The notes under the pieces were generated by a model, which saw only the letters and a program-made list of their open reading frames with translations, was not told where the DNA came from and made no database searches. Both the position numbers and the translations under genes were made by a program. A stretch of DNA of 63,131 nt, counting the filler, from Reclinomonas americana ATCC 50394 (taxonomy: Eukaryota): the NCBI GenBank assembly GCA_048213135.1. It is 5 parts of 3 records of this genome, joined end to end, with 100 filler letters (N's around TTAATTAATTAA, not from the genome) between each part and the next. Parts side by side here need not be neighbours in the genome. Positions count along the whole stretch, not along the records: positions 53,495 to 61,355 come from PS015104.1; 4 more parts are not named here. One strand, given 5' to 3'. Positions 9,642-61,455 of this stretch are shown here, one piece after another; position 1 is the first letter of the stretch; each line of letters begins with the position of its first letter.

Positions 9642-10595
9642 TGTGTGAGGGGTGAGAGAGAGAGAGAGGGAGTGTGAGGTGTGGCTGAAGACAACTCCCG
9701 CGCAGTCTTTCTTGTGTGTGTGAGACGGAGAGAGAGACAACTCCCGCCTATCTCTCTCTCTCTCTCTCTTTGTGTGAGTGTGAGTGAGTGAGAGTGTATA
9801 GGTGACACGTAAGATCGTCTATCTTACAGATTAGGCGCGCGATCACTCCTCTCTCATTTCTCTCTCTCTCACACACACTCTGACTCTGTGAGAGAAAGAC
9901 AGACAGCGAAATGAGAGCATTTTTAACTCTCATTCTCACACACGCACTCTCTCTTTCTCTCTCTCTTTGTCTGTGAGTGCGCAAACCTTTCGCACAAGAT
10001 TCAACACACGCTGCATGGTGTGTGTGCGTTTTTCCCGCCTCCACTTTGCTCACACAATGCAATGAAAGCAGCGCGAGCGCGCCTGTCCACTGTCCGCTCC
10101 CGACGTCGACGCTGGCGAGATTGCAAAGAAAGCTGCACAAGCGGGAAGCACGTATGTGGATTGCCCCCAAGCTCATGCAAGGCGGCAGTCGTGAAAAGAA
10201 TGGTGCAAAAGGATTAATGCTAAGTAAGCAGGACGAGGCTTTGTCCCCGACGTCGTTCCGCTCTCACAGACAGTCAGTCTCCTTGCACAGAGAGAGGCTT
10301 TCCCTCTCTGTGTTGCGGCTTGACCATGTCGAGCTTCTTGGCAAATGCGATCACCAAGGCAAATGCGCGATTGTGTGTGTCTTTGTGTGAGTGTGACATC
10401 TCTCACTTTTGTTTGTGTGTTTGTGTTTGTGTTTGTGTTTGTGTGCAGAAACTCGAGTTGTATATGAAGGTTTGTGTGTGTGAGAGAGAGAGTGAGAGAA
10501 ATGCAGAGAGTTGGTGACTGAATGAGTGAGGAATTGTGTCACAGGGGGAGANNNNNNNNNNNNNNNNNNNNNNNNNNNNNNNNNNNNNNNNNNNN

Positions 10596-10607
10596 TTAAT
10601 TAATTAA
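10596..10607. other. Artificial scaffold linker TTAATTAATTAA (stop codons in all six frames)
   Basis: Identical 12-mer flanked by N runs; occurs four times in the window. Confidence 0.95.
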
Positions 10608-10656
10608 NNNNNNNNNNNNNNNNNNNNNNNNNNNNNNNNNNNNNNNNNNNNCGAAG

Positions 10657-22130: not shown

Positions 22131-22174
22131 NNNNNNNNNNNNNNNNNNNNNNNNNNNNNNNNNNNNNNNNNNNN

Positions 22175-22186
22175 TTAATTAATTAA
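22175..22186. other. Artificial scaffold linker TTAATTAATTAA
   Basis: 12-mer between N runs. Confidence 0.95.
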
Positions 22187-22230
22187 NNNNNNNNNNNNNN
22201 NNNNNNNNNNNNNNNNNNNNNNNNNNNNNN

Positions 22231-23495
22231 GATGCGTGCGCTGCAGGCGAGTGTCGAGCGAATTGGCCCGTTCCTCCAGCGCCGCGCGCTCGTCACGCAG
22301 ACGGTCACGGTCGCGAGTGACGGCCGCCAACTCGCTCTGCAACTGGATCGTCGATGAGGTGAGGTCGGCCAGGCGGTCGTGGATTGCCTTGTTGCCTTCG
22401 GCGGAGCCCGAGGCCAGGAGCTGCGTGAGAGGGAAAGGGGTGAGAAGAGGGAAAGGGGAAAGGGGAAGGGAGGGGAAGGGAAGGAGAGGGAAAGGGGGAA
22501 GGGAGGAGAGGGGCAAGGGCACCGAGCGCTGACGAGGGCCAGGAGAAGAGCAGGCGGAGAATGAAGAAGGAGAGTGGTGGGCACAAGCGGAGAGTGGTGA
22601 CAAACAGGAAAACTTGCAGAGTTGACGGAGGCGGCAGACGACTAACGCAGGAGAGTGGAAGCAAGAGAAGAGTGCAGAGATGACAAAGGGGAGGAGGGAG
22701 TGACGAACTGTTTGATGCGCTGAGTTGGCGGAAGCGGCAGAGAAAAATGAGGCAGGAGAGTGCACAGACGTCAGGGTGGGATGGCTGACAACACAGATCT
22801 CTCTTTTCTCTCACACACTCCACACAACAAACGACAGCATCGTCACACACGCACTGCTCTTTCTTTCAATCTCACTCTCTGTGCCCTTCTCTCTTCGTAT
22901 CCTCACCTTGAGCGACGCATTCTCCTTGGTCAACCGCATAATCTGCTCCCGCAGCGTCAACATACTCGTATTCGCCGACAGCTCCGTGTCACTCAGCCGC
23001 CGATGCAGCGACTCGTTCTCCGTGAGAATCTCCGCCAGCTTCTCCTGCAACGCCGCAATGCCATGCGACGGCGACCGCGACCGCGTCACCATTGTCGACG
23101 ACGCCGGCGATGGCGACCGCTGCACCATCGACGGCAACACCTCCACATTCTCCTCGCCACCAGCCCCCATCGTCGTCGGCGCAATCACCTGCACCGTCGG
23201 CGTCACCGGCGACGCCAAATACCGAGGCTGCGGCTACACAATACAAACAGAATTAACTCCAAAAAATGCCGCAATCACCATGTCCGCCACGCTTACAACG
23301 TACCGAAAGCGAACGTGATTGCTGCTGCTGCTGGCCGGGGCTCACTGGGCGCGCGGGACTGGAGCCGACATGCTGCATCAACTCCCACGAACCCGCGCCC
23401 CCACCAGACGCATCCAACAACGACGACGACGTGGCCGAGGTATCGCGTGCGCGTGGAGTGATGCGCTCCAGTGGCTGCGAGTACTCGTCAAACGG
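22231..23495 (-). CDS. Coiled-coil exons, probably the mis-oriented 5' part of the adjacent MAP65-like gene
   Basis: Three minus-strand exons (PFDEYSQPLE..SRSLS / PQPRYLASPVTP..LTKENASLK / LLASGSAEGNKAIHDRL..LDTRLQRTH) are open at both contig ends. Confidence 0.6.
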
Positions 23496-23515
23496 NNNNN
23501 NNNNNNNNNNNNNNN

Positions 23516-26500
23516 AGGACATGCTGAGTCGCGCCAGCGAATCGTCGGATTTGGAACGGCTGCGACTGGAGAAGGCGCAGCTGGAGGACAAGGCGGCGTC
23601 GTTGGAGTTGAAGGTCAACCAGTTGTCGCAGCAGGTGCAGTCGGTGGCCAACAACCTGGCCGGTGTGTCGCGCGAGCGCGACGCGCTGCAGGAGAGCAAC
23701 CGACAGCTGCGCGACGACGTGGACAAGATGCGCGAGTCGTGCACCAAGGAGAGCAACCGGCTGCAGGACGAGTGGGAGCGCCTGAAGCACTTTGAGAAGG
23801 ACAGCCAGCAGCGAGTGGTGGAGGATCGCGAGTCGTTTGAGCGCGAGATTATCAAGCGTGCCGAGGAGATGGTGGAGGAGTACAAGCAGGTGGCGGCCAA
23901 TGCCACCGCCAAGGCTTCGCAAGAGGTGCGCAATGCGCAGGCACGCGAGCTGCAGGCGNNNNNNNNNNNNNNNNNNNNTTTCAGAATGCGGAGACGGCGC
24001 GCGCGGACATGGAGCGGCGAGTTCGTGCCGAGGTCGAGCAGGCGTCGGCGGTGGAGCGCAGCATGCTGCAGAAGCGTGTGGCCAGCTTGCAGCAGGAGAT
24101 TGAGGCGCTGCGCAAGACGGATCGTGACGGAAAGGAGCGCTTTGCGCAGGAGAATCGCGACGTGCGCGACGAGGTTTGTACGATTGACATGTGCTTTACT
24201 TTGATTTACAAAAATATCCTCACCTCCTCCTTTTCGCCAGTCGTCGCGTCGCCTGCAGGAGCAATCGGCCATGTTCATGGAGCAAGTTGCGGCGCTGAAT
24301 GCCGAACTCAATCAGGCTCGCGACGAGAACAAGCGACTGGAGTTGGAGCACATGCGCCGCCTCGATCAGATGCGCAAGGAGGTGGAGGACCACGGTGACC
24401 AGAAGGCGTCCAGCATCGCCGGCGAGTACAAGGCGCTGGCCGACGAGACGCTGGCCGAGTGCAACCGTCTGAAGGAGTCGCTGCGTGTGCGTGAGAACGA
24501 GCATCAGCGCCTGCTGGAGGACGTGAAGCGCGACGCCAATGCCAAGTGGTCTGACAAGCTGGCGCGCTCCGAGTCGGACTTCCGCGAGAAGCTCCGTGTG
24601 GCGCAAGTGGCGTTGGAGGAGCAGCGGTCGGCGGCTCACGAGCGCGAAGTCCAGTTCCTCTCGCAGTTGGAGGACGCACGCTCCGAGGTCGAGGCCGAGA
24701 GTGTGCGCAAGGCGCGCGAAATGATCGAGCACTACAAGCAGTTGCACGCCGAGGCCGACCGCGCATTGGCAGCGGTGAGTTTAATCATGGCGCATTCATC
24801 TCCTCCTTCCTCCCTGGTTTATTCACTCCTCACTCGTGCAGGAACGCGAAAAGCTGCGCCAGCAAGAAGTCATGCGCGTGCAGGAGGCCGACGAGGCACG
24901 CCTGCGCTACGAGCAGGAACTGAAGGTGCAGACGGAGAAGGCGATTGGCGAGTACCGCTCGGCCGCCTCGACAGCGCGCCAGGAGGCTGCGCAACTGCGC
25001 GAGGAGCTCAACAAGCGCACTGTGGCGAACGCCAAGGCACTGGAGGAGGCACGCCTGCGTATGCAGCAAGAGGCCACGGCCAAGGTGGAGAGCGTAATTC
25101 GCGAGTTCGAGGAGCTGTCGCACAAGAACACGGAGAACGTGTCGCGCGAGCACAGCGACTTGATGCGCAAGGTGGAGGAGCAAAAGGCGACGCTGGAGCG
25201 CCGTTTGCGCGTGGAGCACGCCGCAGTGATTGAGGTGTGGTTGGGCGAGATCGTTTGTGGAGACATTGGTATTCCGGTGCTGAACTTGTGCTCGCAGGAA
25301 ATGACGCAACGACTAATGGCCGCCGAGGAGAAGCTGGCGCACGAGCGCGAGGGTTCGGTGCAACGCGAGAAGGCCATGCTGGAGCGCATGGAGGCGGAGC
25401 GGAACTCTCGCATTGACGAGTACCGACAGCGGTTGGAGGAGGTGACGCAGCAGCACCGCAAGGATGTGGAGCTGATGTTGAGCCGGCTGGAGAGCATTGA
25501 GCGAGGTTTGGTTGGGGGGGAAACGCACGCGGCAATCGTGGAATGCGTCTCTCATTATTGTGGCACACACACGCAGATGGCTTTGCTCAGTCGGCTTCCA
25601 GCCGCCTGGAATTCGAGCGCGCAGTGATGCTGAAGGCCGAGGAGTTGGTGGCGCATCACCGCCACGTATCCGACGCCGCCGTGCGTGACGTGGAGAAGGC
25701 CAAGGCCGCCAATGCTGCCGCGGAGTTGGTGAGTGTTTGTGTGTCTTGGTCCCTTTTGTATCATTTTCTTGTACTCTTCACTGCCTTTTATTGTCCTTGT
25801 GCTCCCTCTTTTTCTTTTCCTTCTTCTCGCGGCCATTTTCCCATGTTCATTTCCTTCTCACTGTCTCTTTCTCTCCCTCCTTCCCTTTATCGCCCTCTTC
25901 CCTCTCCCTCTCCCCCTCCCTCTGCCTTGCCACTCTCTCATTTTCCCTCTCTCTCTCCCTCTCCCTCTCCTCTCTCCCCTTCCCTCTCCCCCTCTCCCCT
26001 CATTCGCCTTGCCCCCACAGGACGGCAAGCAACGCCTGCTGGAGGCCGTGTCGCGCGCCAAGGAGGAGTGCAACCGCCTGCTGGAGCTCAAGATCATGGA
26101 GCGCGACCGTCGCGAGGCCGACCTGCGTGACCAGATCCGCCAGCTGCATGAGCAAAAGGCAGTGGAGGTTGCGTGCATATTCTGTTGTGGTTGTGTGTTC
26201 TCCTCCGTGAGACAATTGTCGCTCATGTGTACCGTTGATCATCCGCAGATGGCCGCACTCACCGAGGAGCACACGCGCGAGGCGTCTGAGTTTGAGCGCA
26301 AGGTGTTTGATCGCAGTGCGCTGCTCATTGAGCAGTACCAGGCGTCGACGCGCAAGGCCAACCAGATGCTGGAGGAGGAGCGACTGGCGTGGGCGGAGCG
26401 TGAGCGTGCTCTTCTGTCCCAGATCGAGGCTATGCGTGTGGACATTTCCGCGCAGGCCGACGAAAAGTCACGACAGACGGTCGACTTTTACGCCAAGCAA

Positions 26501-29500
26501 CTGAAAAAGGCGGAGGAACGAGCGGCGGCGGCCGAGCAGCGCATGGCTTCTCGGGAGGCTGAGTTGCTGGACGAGGATGCGCGAGCGAAACACGAGGCGA
26601 TTGCCGAAACGCGCAAGGCGGTGGAGAAGGAGTACGAGGGCGCAGTGCGTCGTCTGGAGGAGACGATTACTCAGCTGCGCGCCGAGCTGCTGCAGCGCGA
26701 AGAGGTGTGTGTGTGTGTGTGTTTCTTTTCCTGTCGATATGATTTGTGCTTTCTGCCCTGCTCACTCGCGTATCCACCGCAGCGTCTCAACAAGGGCCTC
26801 GAAGAGGGTGCGGCGGCCAGCAGCGCTCGTGAGCAGGCGTTGCAGCGCAAGTTGGAGGAGCGCATGGCAGCGTATCGCGACAGCGTGTTGAAGGAGATTG
26901 CGGAGAAGGAGGCTCAGTTGCGAGTCGACAGGGCGCAGATTGACGAGCACCGCGCTCAGCTGGAGCGCGAAATGGTCGCCCACTTGCAGTCCGAGAAGCT
27001 CAAGAGTTGCGTTGTTGTTGTCAGGGGCGATGTTTGTTGACTGATCGTCCTGTTGTCTTACCGAGCGCGACATGAACAGTGGAAACGGATTTGCGATCGG
27101 CGGTGGACCAGGTGCGCCGCAAGATGGAGGAGTCGTTTGAGTCGAGACTAAAGGCCGACCGTGCGGCTCACAACAACGAGGTGGCGACGTACTTGGCTGA
27201 ACTTGTTGCGTACCTTGTCGTGAACATGCCGCCCACCGGAAAACGATGACTCGTTCTCACGCATTTTATTTTACTGCAGGATCGTCTGAGGGCAGCACTG
27301 GACGACCAGGAGGCTCAGTTGCACGCCAAGGATGCCGAGGTGTCCGACATTCGTCTGCAGACCAAGATGGACTTGCGCACGCTGGCTGGTGAGTTTTTTC
27401 CTTTTGCTGAGCACGCTCGAGAGTCCACGATTCGTGTCATGCTCACGTGCTTGTGTGTGCAGCGAAAGCGCAAGAGGAGATTGCAAACAAGCAGCGGGAG
27501 GTGGAAGCACGAGTGCAGCAGCTCATTGACGAGCACGCACATGAGCGCAGTCGCCTGGCGGAGGAGAACGACCGCCGCCACAATCAGCTCTTGTTGCAGG
27601 AGCAGCAGGTGCGATCACTGTGTCGTCTCTACTTGCAATGTGCGTTTACATGCCGTTGCTTACCCTGGATTTTTCTCACAGGCGCGCACCGAGTTTGAGC
27701 ACGCTGTCCGGCTCGAGTACGCCGGTGCCATCAAGCAAATCGAGGCCAAGTGGCAGGCCGAGTTTGATCGGTGAGTGAGTTGAAGGATGGGCAGAGAGAA
27801 TTGCTACTTCCAGAGACTTACCTTCCTCTCTCCGCAGTCTCCAAGCGCAGCTTCGTGAAGAGCAACTGGAGGGCGAGAAGCGTGAGGCCGCCCTGCGTGC
27901 ACAACTTGTGTCTGTGCGTCAGCGGGCGGAGGAGGAGGCACGACAGCGGTGGTTGGTGACCAAGAACGAGCTGACTGTTGCGTGCATTGCTGGATTGACG
28001 CTGTCATCATACCTTGTTTGTGTGAGCTTTGATACTCGTGTGCCACGTTGCCTTCGTCTTTCTTGCCGTAGTTCATGTCATTCGTCTTTAGAGTGCTCTT
28101 TGTTTATTTGTCTTACCAATGTCTGTGTGCTCTTCCTCTCTCTATGCTTACTGGTGGGTGACATGCAGGCCCTGCACGAGCAACGTGTGCAAGCGCTGGT
28201 GGTGCAAGCGGAGGAGAGCAAGCGTGCGTGGGAGATTGAGCGTGAATCGATGCGCACGGCCAAGGCCCGCGCTCTGGACCAGGTCACCGATGAGCTGAAG
28301 AGAGTGCACGAGAAGGAGAAGGCCGATTTGGAACGTGCCCGGGAGATGGAGCGATCGGCGTTGCGCGAGTCGCTGGAATCGGAGCGCCGACAGTGGGAGG
28401 AGCAGTACGTGGAGATTACGCGCCTGCATGAGCTCAGCTTGATTGAGCTGGAGGAGAAGAATCGCGCTGCGACGCGCGACTTTTTGGCTACCATGCGTGC
28501 CGACGAGGAGGGCCAGATTCGCAAGCTGAAGGACGAGGAGCTGAAGCTGCGCGAGCAGTTCATGGCCGCCTACCGCGAGCGTGAGGGTCGAATGTTGGAC
28601 GAGAAGTTGGCGCTGGAGAAGGACTTGCGTCGCAAGGTGAAAATAGAGAGAGAAAGACGATTTGACCTTGTGATTGTTTCTGATCGCTCACTCGCGCTTG
28701 CAGATGGAAGAGCATCTGGCCGCCGCAGAGGAGGCCGCCAAGTTGGAGTTGGAGCAACGCGAGACCTACTACCGATCCATGCTGCAGCAATTGGACGACG
28801 AGCGTATTCAGCTGAAGCGCTCCTCGGAGGCCGATCGCAAGCGGTTCGAGCAGGACATTTTGGAGCGCACGAACCGGCTGCTGGCGGAGCGCGAATCGGA
28901 CTACGAGGACCGTCTGCGGTCGCTCACCGAGACGCAGGACCGTGAGCGCACTCTGTGGACCGAGGAGAAGGAGACGATGCGGCAGCTGACGCACGACTGG
29001 CAGCTGAAGGTGGATGTGGCCGAGGAGCGTCTGGTCACGACGCGCTCGCACCTGGAAACGCAACTCCGGCAGCAGGAGCTGGCCTCATCCGACGCGCGAC
29101 GCAAGCTGGAGGACGACTTGCGCCGCAAGTACGAGACCGATCTGCAGCAGATTGGCAAGCGCCTGAAGGAGACCTACGACCTGGAGTACCAGGCCATGCG
29201 CGAGCAGGCGGAGAGCGACAAGAAGCACGAGATCAGCCTGGTCGAGTCGCGCGAGCAGGGTGCGCGGTTGGAGTTCCAGCGTGCCCTGGTCGAGAGACAC
29301 TCGGCCGACCTCACCGAGTTGGAGGAGCGGTGGCGCGGCGAGGTTGAGAAGCTCCACAAGGCGCTGCAGGAGGCGCACCACGAGCGCGAGTCCGAGGCAG
29401 TGCAAGCCGGCATTCGTGCGGAGAAGGAGCGGCAGCGACTTGTGAGTGAGTTTGCGAAGGAGGCGGAGCGCTCACGTGAATTGCTGGAGCAGACGCACGC

Positions 29501-31301
29501 CGAGTCGGCCAAGAGGCTCAAGTTGCGTAGCGCAGAGTGTGAAGAACCATGATGCGCGAGAAATGCTGACTGTGTGTATTTCCTTGAATATTGCTGCAGG
29601 ACACAAGCGGCAGAGGAGAGTGCGGCGGCGGAGGCGCGTCATGTGGCCGAAGTGGAGGCACTGCGGCTGCAATTGGATCTCGACAAGCGCAACTTCACCG
29701 ACAGTCTGCGCGCCCAGTACGAGGAGAAGCACGCTGCGTTGAAGGCCACCTACGACGAGTTGCTGTCGGACCGCGACAGCGGTGTGGAAGCGGAGCGTGT
29801 GCGGCTGCACGAGACGTTTGCGCAGCAGTCGCAGACTCTGCGCTCGCAGCTCGATCAGATTCTGCGCCAGAAGGACGACGATGTGAAGATCATGCTGCAG
29901 CAGGCCGAGGAGCGCTTTGCTCAGATTGACGCGGAGCGACAGGAACGGACTGCGCAGCAGCTGCACAAGTCGTTGGTGGAGCGCCGCGAATACGAGCAGC
30001 ATGTGCACGAGCAGGCGGAACAGCGCATCGAGGAGGTTCGCGACGGCCTGCGCAAGGAGCTTGCGGAGGCACTGAAGCGGGAGGAGGACGAGCGCGAGCA
30101 GCGGGATCGGGTGGCGACGGAGAAGGAGCACTTGGAGGCGCAAGTTCGCAAGTTGAAGCAGACGACATTCCGCTGGCGTGTCGACTACCAGCGGGAGACG
30201 CAGGAACGGTACAGCAACCTGCTGGCCGACATGGAGGCACGTCTGCAGGGCGAGTGCGAAGACTTGCGACGACAGATTCTGCAAATGCAGGAGTTGCACC
30301 GACAGGAGGTTCTCACGTGGCAGGAGAAGGTTTGTCGCCGCGGATTTTCTGCGNNNNNNNNNNNNNNNNNNNNNNNNNNNNNNNNTTGCGTTGGTTGATT
30401 GATGGATGACTTTACTGATCATCATGTCATTGCAGGAGGAGAAGCGGCAAGAGGAGGCTGCCGAACAGCTGCGACTGCGCATGGCCGAGGAGCGTCGCAA
30501 GGCGGTGGAGGACGCCGGTCGTGCTGAGGCCGAGGTGGAGAAGAAGCAACGACTCGGTCGCATGAAGATGCGACTGGTGGAGTTGTGGCAAATGTTGGAG
30601 AGCGATTCCGGCGATCGTGCGCGCTTCTTGCAAGAGTGCGAGACGGCACGCAACGATGCATTCACGGACACGGTGTTTGAGTTGTATCGACAGGAGGTGG
30701 CCAAGTTGACCGACCAGCTGCCGCTGGTGGAGACCATTACCCGGCGAGAATTCGTCAAGTTCCGCCTGAAGGAGTTCACCAAGTCAGCCTCCGATCCGCA
30801 GCGTCTCTTCCAGGGCGATCCACAGCGGTTGCTGCGCGAGGAAGCGCAGCGCAAGGAGCTGGACGTGGAGATTCGACGGCTAAACGACATTTTGCTGAAG
30901 GAGTTGCCGGCGTACGAGAAGAAGGTGTGTGTGTTTCTCCATTCACCAACCATAATTTCTTGGCTCGCTGTCCTCACATTTCTTCTCTTCTGCCCTCTGC
31001 AGCACAATTGCCGCTTCATGTACAAGGGCGAGTACTACCTGCAGCTCATGTCTCACGACGTCATTGACGAGACACGGCAAGTGGAACAGGTTTGTGCGCA
31101 GTTGTCTGTGAAACGTCGACATGATGGTGATGGTGATGCTTACTGGCGAGAGAGCAGGAGGTGCGAGCGAAGCAACAGGGAGCAATGACACCGTCGAGTG
31201 GACAACCCGAGTTTTTGTCACCAATGGCCAGTCCATTGTCGGCCACCAACGGCAGTGCTGCGTCAAGACGCCGTGCGACACCAACAGGACCGCGGGCATA
31301 A
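23516..31301 (+). CDS. Giant coiled-coil protein with C-terminal MAP65/Ase1/PRC1 microtubule-binding domain
   Basis: About 20 in-phase exons of E/R/Q/A-rich heptad sequence. C-terminal LVELWQML..EVAKL..KEFTKSASDPQRLFQGDPQRLLREEAQRKEL..LPAYEKKHNCRFMYKGEYYL resembles the PRC1 motif ASDPNRF..LLKEEKQR..WEQEH..FMVNG. Stop TAA at 31299-31301. Confidence 0.75.
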
Positions 31302-41634: not shown

Positions 41635-42663
41635 CTACCTCTTCATCGACCCCTCCGACGGCTCCATGAAGCGCGACTGCAAGTACGCGCAGATCAAGCG
41701 CATTGAGCCGATTCGCGGCAAGGATCGCGACTTCAACCTCGACCATCGCTCCGTCGACAAGCACGTGATTAGCGATTTTCGACCGTACGTCCTCTGTCGC
41801 TGCTACCTGGTGACCAATTACGGGCAGCCGCAGCCGTTCAATGTGTCGAAACTCAATAAGAATGGATCAGTTGCGTGGCGTGTTTTGGAGAGGGAGTGAA
41901 GTAGTGGGAGCCTGAAATCCTCACCCGTCCCGTTGCGTGCAGCAAACCGAGGTCATTCTGCGCGTGTATCCTGGCCACTTGGAAGAGGTGGAGAGCATGA
42001 CGCAGCGGCGCGTGCGCTGCGACGAGCTGATGGCGCTCCGTGGCTATGCGGTGTGCTCCGACAACCCGCAGCTGCTGATGATTGCCATGCCAGGTGGCCG
42101 CTATCGGCTGTACAGCTGCCCGGATCGTGATGGACTGGCGCGGTGAGTTTTGGAGTTTTTTTTGATGAACACTGCGGCACACGATTACGGACACCAGAGT
42201 GGGAACAGACAGACGTAGTGTGCGGTGTTATTCTGCGTTCGTGTGCTTGTGTTCTCAGTGTCCTTCCTCCGCATACCCCCCTTTCTGTCTCGCACGCGCT
42301 CTTGTGTCGTAATCTTGCACCGATCTTTCTTGCCTCTGACTCACTTGCCTAGTTGTCTCTCCATCTCTCTCCCTCTCTTTCTATCCCTTCTCTCTCTCCC
42401 ACTCTCTCTCTCTCTCTCTCTCTCTCGNNNNNNNNNNNNNNNNNNNNNNNNNNNNNNNNNNNNNNNNNNNNNNNNNNNNNNNNNNNNNNNNNNNNNNNNN
42501 NNNNNNNNNNNNNNNNNNNNNNNNNNNNNNNNNNNNNNNNNNNNNNNNNNNNNNNNNNNNNNNNNNNNNNNNNNNNNNNNNNNNNNNNNNNNNNNNNNNN
42601 NNNNNNNNNNNNNNNNNNNNNNNNNNNNNNCGCAATCTTGCCACTGCCTATTGTTCCCTCTTA

Positions 42664-42704
<41 letters not shown>

Positions 42705-45445
42705 TGTTTTCCCCTTCCCCTTCCTCCCCCCTCCCCCTTCTCCTCCCCCCTCCCCCCTCCCCCCTTTCCCTTTTCCCCCTTCCCACCTTCCCCCTCCCAG
42801 ATTCCTGGCCGACACCTACGTCAACCGCCTCGGCACCAAAGTCCGCGATCTCCCCCCGGAGCCCGCACAGCAACTCCTGGCCAAGTGCAGCAAGCAACGC
42901 ACTGTGGACTTGCGTCCGATCCACCGCTGGCACGCCGTGAAGCTGTGCGCGCCGCGGAACCCGCGCGAGTCGCCGAACGCAGGTCCCGCTGGTGCCCCCA
43001 AGCCGCGACCCCTCTCCACCCTGGCCACTGGCCTGTGCGAGTCCGACGGACAGACCGATGTCGCGCTCTCGGTGCACTCGTACGACGACATCTACTGCAT
43101 TGTGCGACCGCCAACCGATCCCACAGTGCTAATCATCCAGTACACCAACGACTACACGCACCGCTACGCGTGCGAGCAGCGTGAGGAGGTGGTGTCGTCG
43201 CTCATTGCCATGTGCGATCGGTCGGGGAGGCGCAGCTGGGTGCGCGCGTCGATGGTGCCCGCGGGTGCCGCTCTGCTGCCACTCCAACTGACATCGCACG
43301 AGCTGCTGTCGGATCTGGAGGAGTATCTGGTGAAGCAGCTGACGCTGTCGTCGACCAAGGGACCGCAGGAGTGGAGGTGGGTGTTGGGAGGTTGGTGGGA
43401 GAGGGAAAAGCGCGTGATATGCTCATCGACACCGTGTGTACACACAGACGTGCGGCCGACGAATTTAACGCGTCGTGCAACGTCGGTGCATGCGTCACCA
43501 AGGATAAGAAGGCCTTTATGTTGGTGCTGGATTTGCTGTCGCGAGCCATGGGCGACAAGGACCCCGAGGTGCTCACCGCGCTTCTCAATTGTGTGGAGAG
43601 GTTCCTGGGCTCCAAGGGTGAGTGCTGAGGGCAGAGTATAGAGGGAAGGAGGTCATTGAGAAAAGACAGGACAGGGTGAAGTTTAATGACGGCAACGCGT
43701 TTCGTAGGCGACAATGAGATGTCACTCGTTTTCATTGTTTTCTCGAACCTCGCCCTCTTCATTGTTATCTATTCTCAATTCCTCTCCTCCACAGCCTGCT
43801 TCACCGCTGTTCCACAACTGCAATCGGCATTCTCGGTTGTCTATCAATTGGTCACCACCTCGATGGACCAGGAAGTCGTGTATGCGGCCACGCGAGTGCT
43901 TCGCCAGGCTGCCGAGCAGGCGTTTGAGACGGACAAGACCCGCTATGAGCAGGCCAACAAGCAGGTAAATAGACGTGTGTCAGTTTTCCTGGCACGCCAA
44001 CCGCGTGGCACTCAATCAGCGCGGCGCAGGCTATTTTTGACGAGAGCTCAGTCAACACGCTCATCGACCAGGCCTTCCGTCGGCTTGAGAATCAGCAGGT
44101 TCTGAGCGCCACCGGCATTTTTCAGCTGCTGTCGTCGCTGCTGCACTGGAACTACGGCTCGACGCCGAACAATGTGCTGCAGTCGGCTCTGCGTGCGCTG
44201 CAAACGCGATGGGTTGCGTCTTAATTGGAGCTGGCACTTGTTCCTTGTGTTTCCTCTCACTGTTTTTTTGGTGCTCCGCGCAGCTGCAGCTTGTGGAGCT
44301 GTCGCTCTCACCCGCTCTGGGCATTGCCGAGAACGCCGCGTGTCTGGTGAAGGTGCGCAGCGAGAGTTGTGGGTTTCGAAGTTGTTGATTCTTATCTATT
44401 GTGGCATGCAGTCCCTGTTGTCGCTGGTTCGTCGCGATNNNNNNNNNNNNNNNNNNNNNNNNNNNNNNNNNNNNNNNNNNNNNNNNNNNNNNNNNNNNNN
44501 NNNNNNNNNNNNNNNNNNNNNNNNNNNNNNNNNNNNNNNNNNNNNNNNNNNNNNNNNNNNNNNNNNNNNNNNNNNNNNNNNNNNNNNNNNNNNNNNNNNN
44601 NNNNNNNNNNNNNNNNNNNNNNNNNNNNNNNNNNNNNNNNNNNNNNNNNNNNNNNNNNNNNNNNNNNNNNNNNNNNNNNNNNNNNNNNNNNNNNNNNNNN
44701 NNNNNNNNNNNNNNNNNNNNNNNNNNNNNNNNNNNNNNNNNNNNNNNNNNNNNNNNNNNNNNNNNNNNNNNNNNNNNNNNNNNNNNNNNNNNNNNNNNNN
44801 NNNNNNNNNNNNNNNNNNNNNNNNNNNNNNNNNNNNNNNNNNNNNNNNNNNNNNNNNNNNNNNNNNNNNNNNNNNNNNNNNNNNNNNNNNNNNNNNNNNN
44901 NNNNNNNNNNNNNNNNNNNNNNNNNNNNNNNNNNNNNNNNNNNNNNNNNNNNNNNNNNNNNNNNNNNNNNNNNNNNNNNNNNNNNNNNNNNNNNNNNNNN
45001 NNNNNNNNNNNNNNNNNNNNNNNNNNNNNNNNNNNNNNNNNNNNNNNNNNNNNNNNNNNNNNNNNNNNNNNNNNNNNNNNNNNNNNNNNNACCCGTCGCG
45101 AGATCCAAGATGCAGTGCGTGCCAACGCAGCGTACTTGCCACTGCTCGCTCACGCCGCGACCGTGGGCTCCGCCTTCCTTCGTGATCTGTACGCCTCGGT
45201 AAGTTGGTTGTGAGGACAGGCGATGTGATTTACTCTCTGCTCATCACTTGCAAATTGTAGGTCCTCGGACTGCTCTGTGAGGGCGTCACGGAGACCATGG
45301 ATGTGTTGCAGCGCATTTTCCCGCGCCCTCTGTTCAAGGCGTTGGTGTCGGACGATGTGACCAGACGGTTTGTTCAGAAGAAGGCAGGAGATGTTGCAGA
45401 GTTGACTGTCGCTATGCGTTGTCACACGCACATGGACGCAATTGC

Positions 45446-45483
<38 letters not shown>

Positions 45484-48400
45484 TCTGTTTGTTTTCGTTC
45501 TCTCTCACTCTCTCTGTTTCTGTCTCTCTCTCTGTTCTGTCTCTCTCTCTCTGTGTCCCTCTCTCTCTCTCTCGCTCACTCACTCACACCACTCTCAAAA
45601 CACACACGCTGCATGTCGCTGAAGACTGCCTGCTTATTCTTGCACTTTTCCTTCGAGAGCGTCATCGTCCAATCGTTCTTTTTCCTTGAAACGCCTCCCT
45701 CAGTGCTCTCGCTTGCGCTTTGCCTCTATTACCCGTCCCCCAGTTTCTCCTCCTCCTGCCTCCTCTGTTGGTCTACTCTTTGTATCTCATTATCCATTTC
45801 TGCACATCCTTCTTCTCTCCTCGTCCCTTGCATCATTCCTTCGTTTCCCCTTATCGTCGTCATCCAATCTTTCGTTCTCTTTCAACTCCCTGTTCACCCT
45901 TTCCCTTCAATCTTTTGTTCTCCACTTGTCATCTCCCCATATCCTTATCTTTGTCGCTTCCCCCCTCATCTCCCCTTCTCCTTCTCCTTTCCCTCCCCTC
46001 CCCCCTCATTCCCTTTACCTTCCCCTTTCCTTCCATCTTGTGTTCTCCTCATATATCCGACTTCTCATCCTCTTCCCTTCCCCTTTTGCTCCCCTCCCTT
46101 CCGTCGTTCCCTTTACCTTCGCCTTTCCTTCCTCTCCTTCCCGTCACTCCCCCCTCTCCCCCCTCACTCCCCCCTTCTCCCCCCTCACTCCCCCCTTCTC
46201 CCCCCTCCCTTCCCCTTCCGCTTCCCTTTCCCTCCCCTTCCCCTCCCTTCTCCTTCCCTTCTCCTTCCCATTCCCCTCACCTCCCCCTTTACCCTTGTCG
46301 CAGCGCCCCAAGCCTCTGGCGCAAACGCGGCCCGCGCATGGGCGACGCCGGTCCGCCACTCCCCCTCGAGCTCAAGTGGCAGAATATGTTCGAGCACGTG
46401 AGTGACGACCACCAGCGTGGCGAAGTGATTTGGAATGACCAGACGCGCGCCGAGTTTCGACACGCGTTGCTCACCGAGTACGCCGCGTTCCGCGAAGACC
46501 TGGTTTGCGCTCCCCGCATGATGTTTAGCTCCTTTGCGGTGCTCCTTCTCACTCCCCGCTCCCCGGCAGGCCAAATTCCCGGGCTCGGTGGTGGAGTGGA
46601 ACTCGGACGAATTCACGGTGCGCTACGAGAGTCTGGAGAACGAGCTGCGAGTCGGCGGTTTCTACCTCGGCAACTACCTGCGCGAGGTGGAACGCATGGG
46701 CTTTGGCAAGGAGAGTGAGGTCGACGACCCCATGGCCTTCCTGGACGACCTGCATCACCGCCTGCTGTTTGACACTCGCCCGGAGACGCAAATGCTCTGC
46801 CTGAAGACCATGGTCATTGTGTACACGATGTACCGGCAGAAAGTCGGCGTGTACCCCTTTATTAATCACCTGTGCCAGGCACTGGTCAAGTTGCGTCACC
46901 CCCTGCCACTCACACTTTTTTCTTGCTTGGTGTGCTGATGGGGGAAAGTACACTGTACAGCTGGGAGTACTTGCCGGCCAAGATCCAGCTGCTTACCTTC
47001 CTGCAGCAGTCGTTCTCCAGCGAGCAGAACGTGAAGCTGTTTGTCGACAATGGCGGTGTCGATTTTTGCATCTCGGTGCTGCCGCTGGTGCACTCGCTGC
47101 CGCCACCATCGCCCGACGGCGTGGTCTCTGAACGTTGCGGCCTCGTCCGACGCTGTCACAGTCTCTTTGGGTGGTTGCTCACCGTTGTGTCGCGCGCGTG
47201 TGATTGTTTGTCGCAGACACGGAGTTGGTGATTCTGGTGCTCCGTTTGCTCATTCGCGCCGCCTCGTTCCACCCGAGCCTCGACGAGGACGGCAATGTGC
47301 TGGTGCCGCTGCCGCGTGTCAAGCGACTCCTCAGCTCGGAACGCCTGCTGCCACACATTGCGCAGTTGCTGTTCACCACCAACGACACGGTGCTGTCGCT
47401 GGTATCGCAGCTGCTGGAGACACTGATTGAGCACAATCACGAAATTGGTATGAGCGAGAGCCGCGCGCGCTGTGCCTGATCTCTCTCTCACCCGCTGACG
47501 CATTTCTCTCTCTCTCTCTCTCACGTGACAGGGCATCGTCTGTACCGCACCGGCATCTTCTTCTTCCCGTTCCTGCACGACGGCAAGCGATTCGCCGCCG
47601 TCGCACCGATCCTCTACGCAGCCCACATGGTGCAGAAGCGTGTGCCGCCGGTGGCCCTGGAAGAGATCATGCCGTACAATCTGGTGCGCCTGCTGGAGGA
47701 GAGTGGAGCGGCGACGTTTGTGGCCAGTTTCCAGTCGGACATGGAGAGTCCGTCGCTCATCTGGAACCAGGTGAGAGCGCGGGCGCTTGTTGTTTCATGC
47801 TGAGAAAACAGCATGATCTGACATTGTCTCTCTTTCCTCTCTCACGTCGCAGACCATGCGACAGTCGTTGGTGGCGCACATGCGCGCGCACTTGGCGCCC
47901 TTTTATCACCAGCTGTCGGCGGCTCCCGGCACCAGCGTCTACAGCCTGTCGACCAGCTTCACGCGCATGGAATACGGCCATCTCACGCAGGAGCCGCGCT
48001 GCGGCAAGTACTTTTTGCGGTATCTGTTGGACCAGAGCCGCTGGCCCGCCGGCTTCCAGATCGCCCCCGTGTCCGAATTCCTGGCCGAGGCCACGGATCT
48101 GATGCAGCAGCTCATTGTGATTCACGCTCAAAGCAATGTCGACATTTTCATGCTGATCGACGCCATTAACATTGTGTGGCCGCGGTACGCCGAAGATGCC
48201 GCTGTGCGCAACTTTGCGTACTTTGCGCCGTTGATTCCGTGCATGGCGGTGAGTGAAGGATGGAGGAAGAGGGAGGTGGAGAGGGAGAAGGGATTGGGGC
48301 CTCATCTTTCTCCTCTTCTATTTCCCCTTTTCTCTCCCGCTCTTCTCTAACACTTTATCCTTGTTTGGCTGTCTCGATTCCTCATCATTCTTCTCTCTCT

Positions 48401-53127: not shown

Positions 53128-53438
53128 CTCTCTCCTCTCTCTCTCTCTCTCTCGCATTCTTCACTCTCTCCCTGTCTCTCTGCCCGTCTGTCTGTCAGTG
53201 TATCTGTCTGTCTGTCTGTCTGTCTGTCTACAGACAGTCTGCCTGTCTCTCTATCTCATTCTCTTTCCCTTTCCTGTTTATGAAAATGAGAGAGAGAGAG
53301 AGCAAGTCAGAGGATTCAGTGATCACATCGAGAACACATCTGCTGAGAGTGATCGGATATACTCTCTCCTTCTCCATCTCCGTCTCATCCCTGANNNNNN
53401 NNNNNNNNNNNNNNNNNNNNNNNNNNNNNNNNNNNNNN

Positions 53439-53450
53439 TTAATTAATTAA
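53439..53450. other. Artificial scaffold linker TTAATTAATTAA
   Basis: 12-mer between N runs. Confidence 0.95.
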
Positions 53451-53541
53451 NNNNNNNNNNNNNNNNNNNNNNNNNNNNNNNNNNNNNNNNNNNNAGAGAG
53501 CGACAGAGAGAGAGAGAGAGAGAGCGGGAGAGACACTCAAC

Positions 53542-55688: not shown

Positions 55689-56888
55689 TCATATCTTCAA
55701 CCCCGACGTGCAGTCGCCGCTCGTCGCACACGCGGTCATTGTGGATGTCGCCACCACGCCACTCTTCGGCACACACTGCTTGGTCGACGCCGCGAATGTC
55801 CACGAGCCGCACGCAGTCAACTGCGAGCACCACAGCGAACATGCTGGCGGTCCGGTTGTTGTTTTGATGGCCCACGTGAGGTCGCCACCAGGTCGATCTG
55901 CATACAAGCACCCAACGCATCAGCCACGATTCTCTCACTCTGCAACCCTGCGAGGACTCACCCGTGAACAACCACTATCCGACGCTGTAAAACACATCCA
56001 ATCATCGTCAGCATTTCCCACACATGCAGGTTACGCTAATACGTGAAGAGAAAGAGAGCTCGAGCGACAGAATCCGAACTTGATCTGCTCCTCACTCTTC
56101 CCACAGCTCTTCCCCTTCCCGCCACTCAAAGCCTGACCCTGGACTCGTGCATTGCTGCCCCTTGTTGCACGTGCACTCTTCACCAGTCCAGTAACCCACT
56201 CCGGATCCTCTCTCCTGTCATGAATATCGCTGCTGTGCTCCTAGGCCTCGCACTCAGAAGAAGAACAAGGGCAAGAAGGCAGCGGCGGCTCCGCAGCGGT
56301 GGAGGAGAGTGACGAGGATGACGTACGAGGAGGCGCCGGCCACTGCTGCTGCTGCTAGCGCTGGTGGTGGCAAGGAGAAGAAGAACAAGGGCAAAAAGGC
56401 AGCGGCGGCTCTAGTGGAGGAAAGCGATAAAGACTGACCTTGGGACTCTGGCATCGCTGCCTTGTCTCACTTTCAGCCCGTTCACTCCTCAACCTCACCC
56501 TCGCGATCGGTGCCTCTGCTTGTCTTCCCTTCATACTTTGCCCTCTACCTCTGCCCACTTTACATCCCTCCCCTTTCTTGCCACTCCCTGCTCACCTCCT
56601 GGTTCACAGTCTACCCTCCACACTCGAAAGAGTTGGTGGTGCCGCAGCGCCGTCGACAATGTTGTGATTGACCCACGAATTGAGCTCGAGAGTGACAGAC
56701 GTGCCAGCGATGTTGCTGGCGACAGCGGTGAGCACTGTCTGCGCGTCTGTGGAGGATAATGTACCATGCGTGCGCGCGTAAGGGAGAGAGAGAAAGAAAG
56801 ATGAAAGAAAACAGTCATTCGGAGACACGCAACTCGCAGTACCAACGAGCACGCAGAAAACGAGCACAACGCTCAACAATGCACGCAT
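55689..56888 (-). pseudogene. Decayed tandem paralog of the NHL gene: signal peptide + N-terminal exon + terminal PAN/apple-like exon
   Basis: First intron in the same position (TA|NAQTV). TAVASNIAGTSVTL..WVN matches TAVANNITGTTATL..WVN, then a frameshift before NSFE. In-frame TAG in the exon near 55965. Last exon 55897-55689 DRPGGDL..CSLWCSQLTACGSWTF..C.PK..TSG is PAN-like. Confidence 0.6.
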
Positions 56889-57240: not shown

Positions 57241-60200
57241 ATGAGCGACGCAGCAGCAGCGAGCGCAAGTGACGAGCGAGATGGCCAGATGGCCACCTCA
57301 GGTTCAACCTCACACAAACACACACACTCGCACACACGCACGCACTCTGTCTCTCTCTCTGTCAGTTCTCGTTCTCTCACTCTCTCACACACTCACGCAC
57401 ACGCGCACGCCTGACGATTCGCTCACACTCACACTCACACACACAGCGTCACCGACTTCATCCTCGACAGGCTCCTCGGGAGTGCCTCCGCCTCCCGCGC
57501 AATCGGCATCGGCGGCGGGTGCGGCGAGCACTGTACCAGCGACGGTTGTTGTCGCGGCGCAGTCGATTCATCATCCTCGTTGTCATCATCATCATCGTCG
57601 CAATTGGCAGTCGGGGGAGCAGAGGTGACGGGGGAGAAGGCATCTGCTGGTGGTGGGACAGGAGTGTCCTCTACGGCGGCAGCAGCAGCAGCTGCGGGAA
57701 GCGGTGCGAGTGGAGTCGCGACGGGCGNNNNNNNNNNNNNNNNNNNNNNNNNNNNNNNNNNNNNNNNNNNNNNNNNNNNNNNNNNNNNNNNNNNNNNNNN
57801 NNNNNNNNNNNNNNNNNNNNNNNNNNNNNNNNNNNNNNNNNNNNNNNNNNNNNNNNNNNNNNNNNNNNNNNNNNNNNNNNNNNNNNNNNNNNNNNNNNNN
57901 NNNNNNNNNNNNNNNNNNNNNNNNNNNNNNNNNNNNNNNNNNNNNNNNNNNNNNNNNNNNNNNNNNNNNNNNNNNNNNNNNNNNNNNNNNNNNNNNNNNN
58001 NNNNNNNNNNNNNNNNNNNNNNNNNNNNNNNNNNNNNNNNNNNNNNNNNNNNNNNNNNNNNNNNNNNNNNAAGTTGGGTGGAATGAGAGATTGAGGAGAG
58101 GGAGAGAGAGAGAGAAGGGGAAGGGTAAGGGAGAGCCTCGTGTGGCGCACAGGCTCTGACAGAGGAAGACGCTCTCCATCTCCGCTAGTTTCTCGTGTTG
58201 TGAGCGAGAAAAAACTCATGGGGACGCACGAAAACGCTCTCCATCTCCTCTCGATTCTCGCGCACAGAGAGAGAGAGAGAGAGAGAAAAGAGAGGGTGTA
58301 AACAGGAGTTCATGGGGCGCTCGTACGCTTCTGTAACGTCGCTCTCAGTCTCCGCTCACTTCTCGCGCTGAGAGAGAGAGGCAGAGAATGGTAGCACAAG
58401 AAAGTGACATACTGCTGCTCACCTTTGCATTGAGAAGGAGCAGTGAGTGGGGGAGAGAGAGGTGGAGAATTGGTCACCGTTCAGGCTCTTGCCTCTCTCC
58501 ACCCTTGCTCGTTTGTTGTGTCGAGAGACAGTGGACGAGTGGGGAGGCAGAGAATAGCACCTCTCAGGCTCTTGTCCAGGCGGAGAAGGCCACTTTGCCG
58601 CTCCACCCGCGGTCGCTTGTTGCACAGGGTGGCAGAGGAGGGGAGAAGATAGAGACGCAGAATAGGAGCTCCATTGCGCATTGCAGTGCTTCTCCAGGAG
58701 AAGGTGGTCCATCACTCTTTACCATCGCGCTCGCAGAGAAAGACGGACTGAGAACAATAGTTCCTCAGCAGATATTCTCCATCGCGGCTCTCGGCGCTCG
58801 TTTCTGTGAGGGCCAACACACGTGGTCTCTCTTCTGTTTCTCGTTCCATGTTCTCTCTCTCGCTCAGCATGTTGCACACAGCTCAGCATGTTGCACACAA
58901 TGCTCATATATCATGACACCGCATTTTGACTTGGTGGACAGTGAGATGTGCTCAACTCACCTTCCTTCTCCCTTCGCGTCTAAGCATGTCCTTCTCCTTG
59001 ATTCTGTCATTCTACGACGATTTCTCTTGCTCGAGTCGTCTCATCGCTCTCCCGCACAGTTGGTCCCGCTGTCGACATTCCTCGAAAGGTTCCAGTATCT
59101 GGAGAAGGGTGGCCGTGAGAAATCCCCAGTGGTGTGCGTGGAGGGTGCGTCGGAGATCACTTGTCCACGAATTGCATGTTCGATATTGCATTTGACTGTA
59201 GACCTGTGCGCAGGCATTGTCGTTCGCAAGCGGTCAAATAATCGTTGCGCGTTGGTTGTGTTTCCTCCCTTGCATGGTTCCTCGTGTAGCTGACGAGTGG
59301 GTTGGTGTGTGAAACGCAGCGCGATTGCACTTTGTGGACATTGGAGGAGATGGTGCGTGATGACTGTACTATTTTTGTCTCGCTGATTCTCGTGCTCACT
59401 TCGATGTGCGCGGGCGCAGGAGTCGAGAAGTTCCAGCTGATGTGCGATCAAAGGTGGGAAAGAAGAGAGAGAAAGGGGAGAGAGGGGAAGGGTGGAAAAG
59501 GAGTGGGAAAAGGAGTGGGAAAATCCTGTTATCTCTGCGTTTGTGTTTCTGTCTCACTTTGCTTTCTCTCTCTCGAATTCCGACGTCCTTCTCGTTAGTG
59601 CATGTGCTATTTTCTCGATTAGCGAAAGGAATGAGGAGAAGGGGAAAGATAGATGAGGAGCAGTGCAGTGGAAAAGCTGATAGACGAGGGAGAATGCGAC
59701 ATGGGGATAGGAGGGAATGGAGGGCTCACTCTCCAGTGAACTGTCGTCTCTCCCGTGCTCCCCCTCTTTCCCCCTCTTTNNNNNNNNNNNNNNNNNNNNC
59801 CCTTCCCCTCCTCCCTTCCCCCCTTTCCCCCCCTTCCCCCCCTTTCCCCCCCTTCCCCCTCTTTCCCCCTCTATCCCCCTCTCTTACCCCCTCCGCTCAC
59901 CTCCCCTTGTCCATGCGCAGAGAATTCGACGGCCAGCTGGCCGACTTTGTGCAGTCGCTGCAAGTTGGAGATCACCTGCGAGTCGAGGGCGTGGCAGGTA
60001 CAGAGACCCCCCTTCTCCCATTACCCCCTCTCTCCCTCCTTCTCTCCTTCTCAATCTTCTCCCCCAACGACAGCCCGCACCATGGCCGGCGAGGTCTCCC
60101 TCGTACCCCACCGCGTCCTCCACCATCGACCGGCACCGGCCGACGCCAACGGCATCGGACACCTCGTGCAACAAAAGTCGCATCCGAACTACTCGCTGCC

Positions 60201-61355
60201 GCAGCCGACGATTTCGCTCTCCGAGTTCCGTGCAAGATACGAGAAGCTCGAGGCCGGAGTGGACTGCACGCAGCACAAGATGGAGGTGATTCAGGGTGTG
60301 GTCGTGCGCAAGCGCACACTGAATGCCCGCCTGCACTTTGTCGACGTTCACGGAGACGGCGTCGAAAAGTTCCAGTTGCTGTGCGACCAAAAGTGCGTTG
60401 CTGTTTTGTGGGCCCTGCGGGGCGGGGTGAGGGTGACACGTCTCTCATTGCACCACGCGCGCGCAGTGTGTACCGCGGCAACGTCTCCTTTGCCGTGTCG
60501 GCTCTGCGCTTCGGGTACATGGTGCACGTTCAGGGCTTCCCAATAATGAGTGGCTCTGGTGAGTTGAGTCTGGCGCCGATCAAGATCACGGTGATTGCCA
60601 CGAATGGATTGGTGAGTCTGGTAGTGCGAGGGAGGAGGCGTTCTGTTTGGTCACGTTCCCACCGCCTCCTTGTGTTGGCAGGGCGCACCGGTGTTCCCCG
60701 GTGGCCACGTGCCCAGCCACCTGCAGCCGACCATGAATCTCAGCGACTTCAAGGCGGCGTTCGACGACAAACTGCAAGCCAACGACCGCCTGAAAGGCGA
60801 AGTGCACCGTGTGGTGGGCATGGTGCGCCAGAAGAGATGTATCAACACTCGACTCTTTTTTGTGGACATTGCCAGCCTGTCACGCAATCAGACCGCCATG
60901 GTCGACAAGCTGCAGTTGATGGCGGATCAAAAGTGCGCACTCTCATCACCTTCCATTGTCTCTCTTCCCCGTTGTTTCTCAACACACCTCGCAGCGACTA
61001 CCCCGGCCAACTGCCCGACCTCATGGAGTCGATCGAGCCGGGCGATGTGGTGTTCGCTCAGGGCTACCCCGCCAAGTCGAACACGGGCGAGCTCAGTCTT
61101 GTACCGGCCTCCATTGTTATTTGCCCGAATCACACACGCCACGCGTCGCCGATGGTGCCGTCGGGAGTGGCCGCCACAGTACCTACGGGTGGCGTCCCGC
61201 TACCAGTCGGCGTCGCCTTGTCGCCGCGTCTGAATCACGCGGCAGGCGGCGCACCTCATCCGCACCCACATCACCACCACCCACACCCGCACCCTCATCA
61301 CCCTCACCCCCACATGCCGCATCCTCACGCACACCTGCCGGGCCAGCCACCAGCA
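57241..61355 (+). CDS. Protein with three tandem LysRS anticodon-binding-like OB folds, low-complexity N-terminus and His/Pro-rich tail; 3' end truncated
   Basis: Exons 59060-59144, 59214-59243, 59320-59352, 59420-59453, 59921-59997, 60074-60392, 60467-60611, 60682-60932 and 60995-61355 give three repeats of [SL.(E/D)F...Y/F..L..G...V.G.V..KR..N.RL(H/F)FVD....(E/D)K(F/L)QL..DQ......G....V/AQG.P..S..GELSL.P]. Linkage to the 57241 exons across the gap is inferred. Confidence 0.7.
58165..58380 (+). repeat. Three degenerate intronic tandem units (CGCTCTCCATCTCC..TTCTCG..GAGA..TCATGGGG)
   Basis: Copies near 58168, 58233 and 58339. Confidence 0.55.
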
Positions 61356-61399
61356 NNNNNNNNNNNNNNNNNNNNNNNNNNNNNNNNNNNNNNNNNNNN

Positions 61400-61411
61400 T
61401 TAATTAATTAA
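61400..61411. other. Artificial scaffold linker TTAATTAATTAA
   Basis: 12-mer between N runs. Confidence 0.95.
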
Positions 61412-61455
61412 NNNNNNNNNNNNNNNNNNNNNNNNNNNNNNNNNNNNNNNNNNNN

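Follow-up and report, generated by a model that had tools for sequence, protein, structure and literature searches.

In the complex of human lysyl-tRNA synthetase (LysRS) with tRNA-Lys3 resolved by cryo-electron microscopy, F144 stacks with U35 and U36, to which R136, Q155, and E195 are bonded; U33 is held by K141, N159, and R161, and the modified wobble base by R161, T191, and K193 (PMC11878792). Between the barrel and the catalytic core lies a short linker (residues 208-220), which contacts base 37 (PMC11878792). Proteins of the LysRS family may also handle tRNA without charging it, and the LysRS precursors preMSK1p and preKARS2 are described as carrying tRNA-Lys to mitochondria without charging, which provides a precedent for a carrier role (PMC3683045). 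Synthetase-derived proteins that do not charge tRNA mostly keep the catalytic core, as described for PoxA, AsnA, and HisZ (PMC3532385). In this work, we analyzed a 63,131-nucleotide stretch of DNA from Reclinomonas americana ATCC 50394 (GenBank assembly GCA_048213135.1; hereafter, the window) and found a spliced gene on the + strand (59060-61355) that encodes three tandem repeats. These repeats are related to the anticodon-binding domain (ABD) of LysRS, and no catalytic core is in view.

Similarity of the Repeats to LysRS

The gene product consists of three repeats of 132, 126, and 112 residues, with pairwise identities of 41.6, 41.0, and 39.0%. For comparison with known structures, a profile (A1) was built from two metagenome relatives (P0003 and P0001, described below) and six unspliced exon pieces of the window. 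This shallow profile was searched against 177,635 distinct PDB sequences, with rows listed at E-values up to 10. LysRS accounted for 18 of the 20 rows, each with E <= 0.0082, and the other two rows had E > 1. The best matches were the human LysRS entries 6ilh, 4dpg, and 3bju (E 6.5e-10 to 9.3e-10; human chains up to 1.3e-9), and the LysRS of Plasmodium falciparum (E 2.7e-6) and Entamoeba (E 8.9e-6) were recovered as well. The match spans profile positions 31-120 and chain residues 33-131, the latter corresponding to 101-199 of the full-length chain 6chd_A. This region of approximately 99 residues comprises the helix before the barrel and the OB barrel. No AsnRS, AspRS, RPA, SSB, or telomere OB proteins were found in this search at E up to 10. 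Because the search recovered LysRS and neither RPA nor SSB, the repeats match LysRS rather than generic OB folds. An earlier reading of this DNA from its letters alone (hereafter, the sequence-only reading) had favored a LysRS-type origin over RPA- or SSB-type OB folds, and the distribution of PDB rows agrees with that proposal.

Exon 9 alone gave a similar picture, with LysRS in 17 of 18 PDB rows (best E 8.2e-4). Its alignment to the LysRS chain 8s0v_A extends to query residue 57, into the stretch that links the barrel to the core. A phmmer search of P0003 alone against the PDB gave no meaningful match. In a language-model search with residues 41-155 of P0003, clusters of the tRNA_anti-codon family (PF01336) made up 27 of the 30 hits with a score of 0.90, which we treat as a lead only. 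Based on these comparisons, the repeats are homologous specifically to the LysRS ABD, including both the helix and the OB barrel, of the eukaryote-type class IIb.

Conservation of Anticodon-Contact Residues

The mapping of human LysRS residues onto the repeats can be considered sound, since a numbering offset of chain + 68 reproduces 11 of 11 residue identities. The alignment shows no substitution of the U35/U36 contacts R136, F144, Q155, and E195 in any of the repeats (12 of 12 positions identical), and the equivalents of R136, F144, and Q155 are also kept in both metagenome relatives. This invariance indicates that constraint acts, in each of the copies, on the portion of the pocket responsible for recognizing the two invariant uridines of the lysine anticodon. 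The sequence-only reading had proposed binding of tRNA or U-rich RNA, and with these contact residues kept, such binding may reasonably be expected.

In every repeat, Arg takes the place of K141 and Asp that of N159; L142 is retained. The position of R161, where the codon is split by a phase-2 intron, has Arg in repeat 1 only and Asn in repeats 2 and 3. The equivalent of K193 is Ala, Ser, and Thr in repeats 1, 2, and 3, respectively. These last two positions indicate that the wobble-base contacts are not under constraint across the repeats.

Gene Structure and Origin of the Repeats

Once joined, the nine exons of this gene can be read in one frame through 445 codons without meeting a stop, and the other two frames of the joined exons have 11 and 3 stops. 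All eight introns have GT..AG boundaries. In the coding exons, the GC content is 0.73 at third codon positions (GC3) and 0.41 at second positions (GC2), which fits a real coding sequence in a GC-rich genome. The locus is a real, spliced protein-coding gene. Seven of the introns are 62-76 nt long, and intron 4, which is in phase 2, is 467 nt long and contains a 20-N gap (59780-59799).

Repeat 1 starts with its N-terminal helix in exon 1 (59060-59144), which was defined by a splice reading with an open frame. The OB strands 1-3 of this repeat are encoded by exons 2-4 (59214-59243, 59320-59352, and 59420-59453), which are divided by three short GT-AG introns, and its C-half is encoded by exon 5 (59921-59997), which follows the long intron 4. 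Exon 6 (60074-60392) contains the last strand of repeat 1, a linker, and the helix and strands 1-3 of repeat 2. Based on BLASTP comparison of half-repeats, exon 7 (60467-60611) corresponds to the C-half of repeat 2, and exon 8 (60682-60932) to a linker followed by the helix and strands 1-3 of repeat 3. The first part of exon 9 (60995-61130) contains the C-half of repeat 3 and a remnant that resembles the linker between the ABD and the core; the remainder (61131-61355) is a His/Pro-rich low-complexity tract that is cut by the contig end. All of these exons are on the + strand. The tail after repeat 3 has 75 residues, including 19 Pro and 18 His. The three spliced tandem repeats (39-42% identity in the nine-exon frame) followed by a His/Pro tract, as well as the coordinates 59060-61130 (exon 1 through repeat 3), are as the sequence-only reading had described them. 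Its suggestion of disordered flanks may hold for the C-terminal side, where a low-complexity flank is seen; on the N-terminal side, the 5' end is ambiguous.

At this 5' end, exon 1 has a good 3' splice site just upstream (AG at 59058-59059). Alternatively, exon 1 may be read through from upstream, where the frame stays open as far as two in-frame ATGs (58946 and 58913). Starting from these ATGs (58913-59059, +), 38-49 Leu/Ser/Arg-rich residues would be added before repeat 1, and this segment may be a presequence or belong to an intron or an untranslated region. The upstream neighbor on the same strand is the end of a Lys-rich open reading frame (ORF; 56256-56440), in which a KKNKGKKAAAA unit occurs twice and the stop is located near 56437. 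Since this + strand ORF ends near 56440, the start of the three-repeat gene is expected between 56440 and 59060. At the other end, the contig stops at 61355, inside the gene, which is thereby left without its 3' end. The artificial contig joiner N44-TTAATTAATTAA-N44 follows at 61356-61455.

With respect to the origin of the repeats, unspliced exon pieces of repeats 2 and 3 match each other in both their N-halves (BLASTP E 4e-10) and their C-halves (E 1e-9). A phase-2 intron is found at the same position in each repeat, in the codon directly after a conserved D-Q. This shared intron site suggests that the array arose when an exon pair was duplicated in tandem. Repeat 1 has three additional introns, which we read as gained. 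No fourth copy was found by a repeat profile search of the six-frame translation of the window.

Relatives and Structure Prediction

An exhaustive phmmer search of 1.84 billion representative proteins with exon 6 as the query returned four rows, and two of these are true relatives. P0001 (122 aa) and P0003 (171 aa) show 46 and 56% identity, respectively, in the stretches that match exon 6; each forms a cluster of its own and comes from a short ENA metagenome contig. The other two rows, P0002 and P0004, were set aside on reading as unrelated repetitive proteins. In P0003, one exon covers the final part of a repeat, then a linker, and then a nearly complete second repeat. With one repeat thus followed by another, the tandem arrangement has been retained outside this organism as well. 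Residues 1-20 of P0001 form an Arg/Gly-rich (RGG-like) stretch before the repeat; provided that P0001 really begins here, the family may have an extra RNA-binding element. Word-index searches with exon 6, the A1 profile, and exon 9 residues 1-60 found no longer or full-length relatives, and scans of metagenome contigs with a profile (A2) and P0003 found no relative.

Structure prediction was conducted for P0003 only, using AlphaFold2 with A1 as the alignment, such that the model is not one of the window protein. The mean predicted local distance difference test (pLDDT) score is 57, with values of 64-85 across most of the repeat. The elements of this weak model (H47-57, E69-80, E85-92, E118-123, H133-138, and E145-150) are in the OB order. 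The fifth OB strand is absent because P0003 is truncated and runs into an intron. In a Foldseek search, LysRS chains rank first, although weakly (E 4.8e-3 and above), and in VIA-align a mix of OB proteins was obtained with no distinction among them. As made with P0003, the AlphaFold and Foldseek comparison called for in the sequence-only reading placed LysRS first without separating it from other OB proteins. By structure alone, the model would be classified as a generic OB fold. Given these structural ties, the assignment to LysRS rests on sequence.

Proposed Function and Alternative Explanations

The interpretation that we prefer, with a probability of about 0.5, is that this gene encodes a trivalent protein derived from LysRS that reads anticodon loops of the xUU type, as in tRNA-Lys, and is apparently non-catalytic. 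Each barrel, five-stranded and preceded by an N-terminal helix, would most likely grip an unstacked xUU-type loop, whether that of tRNA-Lys or perhaps of tRNA-Asn, or else single-stranded U-rich RNA. With three barrels, one protein could hold as many as three tRNAs, or a single RNA at high avidity, and would not charge them. Its role would be to carry, chaperone, or sequester tRNA-Lys. The low-complexity His/Pro tail may serve partner binding. The comparisons above establish the gene structure, the repeats, their specific homology to LysRS, and the conservation of residues; from these, we infer that RNA is bound, with what specificity and stoichiometry, and that no catalytic domain lies past the contig break. 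A further step, namely, that the protein is a stand-alone non-catalytic anticodon reader that founds a new class of proteins, derived from synthetases and carrying or sequestering tRNA, confined to a barely sampled protist lineage, is more tentative and somewhat doubtful. The tandem, ABD-only LysRS architecture appears to be new, and the domain itself is well known. The sequence-only reading had not recognized this architecture as described, and we likewise found no description of a LysRS-ABD-only protein, or of tandem copies in a eukaryote, in the open-access full-text literature.

Several results weigh against the reading of the gene product as a non-catalytic anticodon reader. The wobble-base contacts are mostly lost (K193 in all copies and R161 in two), such that the specificity may differ from that of LysRS. 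None of the unspliced exon pieces attains the Pfam cutoff for PF01336, and the N-half pieces have no hit at all. The best of these unspliced pieces, exon 9, has E 0.013 and 15.9 bits, compared with a curated cutoff of 27, so the Pfam check that the sequence-only reading had called for came out negative for such pieces. No Pfam family matches P0003, which contains a nearly complete repeat, even with E-values allowed up to 10. When A1 was aligned to Escherichia coli LysS, AsnS, and AspS using hhalign, the probabilities were 0.3, 0.8, and 5.8%; the alignments are partly in wrong regions, and these values do not rank the three enzymes. The P0003 model is weak and lacks the last strand, and the top VIA-align Z-scores (5.1-5.8) are tied among LysRS, AsnRS, AspRS, MCM10, Teb1, Stn1, PolD DP1, and others. 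Furthermore, the 5' end is ambiguous between a splice site and upstream ATGs. Finally, the gene is cut at the contig end after the 75 tail residues, and a core, a fourth barrel, or another domain could follow.

This truncation leads to an alternative in which the gene is the N-terminal part of a catalytic LysRS with three appended barrels, and a fourth ABD and the class II core are located past the contig break. The lost 3' end and the remnant after repeat 3 that resembles the ABD-to-core linker, as aligned to 8s0v_A, would both fit such an expanded enzyme. However, at least 75 Pro/His-rich residues follow repeat 3, where LysRS has a short linker that contacts base 37 and then the core. The presence of a linker-like remnant and then a low-complexity tract argues against repeat 3 as the working anticodon domain of an enzyme. 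Also, no core-like sequence was found within the window. In a tblastn search of the whole 63-kb window with E. coli LysS, the single match was to the barrel of repeat 3 (E 0.05), and residues 160-505, which correspond to the catalytic part, had no match anywhere in the window. In addition, there is no long protein with these repeats among the 1.84 billion representatives or in the word searches for longer relatives. Taking both sides into account, we consider an expanded LysRS unlikely. The claim of the sequence-only reading that there is no catalytic domain stands for the window, where no core was found and a His/Pro tract follows repeat 3; for the complete gene, which runs off the contig at 61355, it is provisional.

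A different possibility is that the protein binds single-stranded DNA (ssDNA) or other nucleic acids, similar to RPA, Teb1, CST, and POT1, and shares the OB fold only distantly with the synthetases. Three OB folds in tandem is the layout of RPA70 and Teb1, and in the structure-only search with the weak model, Teb1, Stn1, MCM10, and RPA tie with synthetases at Z-scores of 4.4-5.4. These structural ties contrast with the profile search, in which LysRS contributed 18 rows and RPA, SSB, and telomere proteins contributed none within the E limit of 10, and with the retention of both the LysRS-type helix before the barrel and the four U35/U36 contact residues. This explanation is thus quite improbable. 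Even less probable, to a degree that we regard as marginal, is that the locus represents a decaying duplicate (pseudogene) or an assembly artifact of a LysRS gene. The assembly is a draft, and one of the 29 N runs in the window lies inside intron 4. However, the 445 open codons extend over eight canonical introns, and the difference between GC3 and GC2 is that of a coding sequence. The copies are only approximately 40% identical, which indicates that they are not assembly duplicates, and their functional residues are invariant. Moreover, relatives are present on two other metagenome contigs.

Other Features of the Window

In addition to the joiner downstream of the three-repeat gene, the same N44-TTAATTAATTAA-N44 joiners occur at 10552-10651, 22131-22230, and 53395-53494. 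The window is thus a chain of separate contigs, and adjoining pieces are not necessarily neighbors in the genome. Rfam and tRNA scans of the window gave no matches. Among the other coding regions, a TPR_12/TPR_10 repeat protein was found at 751-1716 (+; E 1.4e-25 and 1.7e-20), and a DDHD-domain exon of a phospholipase-type protein at 7632-8705 (-; PF02862, E 2.8e-20). Exons of an RME-8 (DNAJC13-like) endosomal protein are located at 42631-43638 and 46302-46715 (+; PF19432, E 1.4e-9 and 1.1e-7). A run of long E/R/K/L/Q-rich ORFs at 23257-31188 (+) resembles one large coiled-coil protein broken by introns and gaps; two pieces of it were scanned and have no Pfam family at the curated cutoff.

Comparison With Known Systems

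KARS1, the eukaryotic cytosolic class IIb LysRS (6ilh, 4dpg, 3bju, and 6chd), has the helix, the OB fold, and the U35/U36 contacts in common with the repeats. However, KARS1 has one copy of the domain and the core, whereas the R. americana protein has three copies and no core in view. Compared with KARS1, the repeats also lack K193 (and R161 in two of the three), and a His/Pro tail is added.

Within the LysRS family, preMSK1p and preKARS2 escort tRNA-Lys without charging it (PMC3683045), as is proposed here for the three-repeat protein. They differ in being full-length enzymes with a presequence. PoxA is not known to have an anticodon-binding domain. PoxA/EpmA (GenX) is a truncated LysRS paralogue that has taken a new non-charging role (PMC3532385; PMC3950694), and it represents the mirror case of the three-barrel protein in that it keeps the catalytic core.

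Trbp111, Arc1p, AIMP1/EMAPII, and Trypanosoma brucei MCP1 are likewise synthetase helpers that bind tRNA through OB folds (PMC11286949; PMC12021450). However, these proteins use an unrelated OB family of the TRBD type that reaches the elbow or the CCA end of the tRNA and does not read the anticodon, and the Pfam scans of the exon pieces, P0001, and P0003 gave no match to this tRNA_bind (TRBD) family. RPA70, Teb1, and CST also have several OB folds per chain, and their structural Z-scores are tied with those of synthetases. These proteins bind ssDNA, lack the LysRS helix and contact residues, and showed no sequence similarity to the repeats in the profile search of the PDB.

The worth of this finding hinges on the missing 3' end. 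Three modules in a row suggest sequestration, channeling, or transport of tRNA-Lys, a kind of role that LysRS precursors already have in mitochondrial tRNA import. If the proposed reading is true, the protein would provide a natural, compact scaffold for anticodon-specific tRNA capture. Among synthetase-derived and tRNA-binding proteins that do not charge tRNA, one composed of anticodon-reading modules only would represent the missing counterpart, which selects tRNAs by their anticodons and does not act on them.

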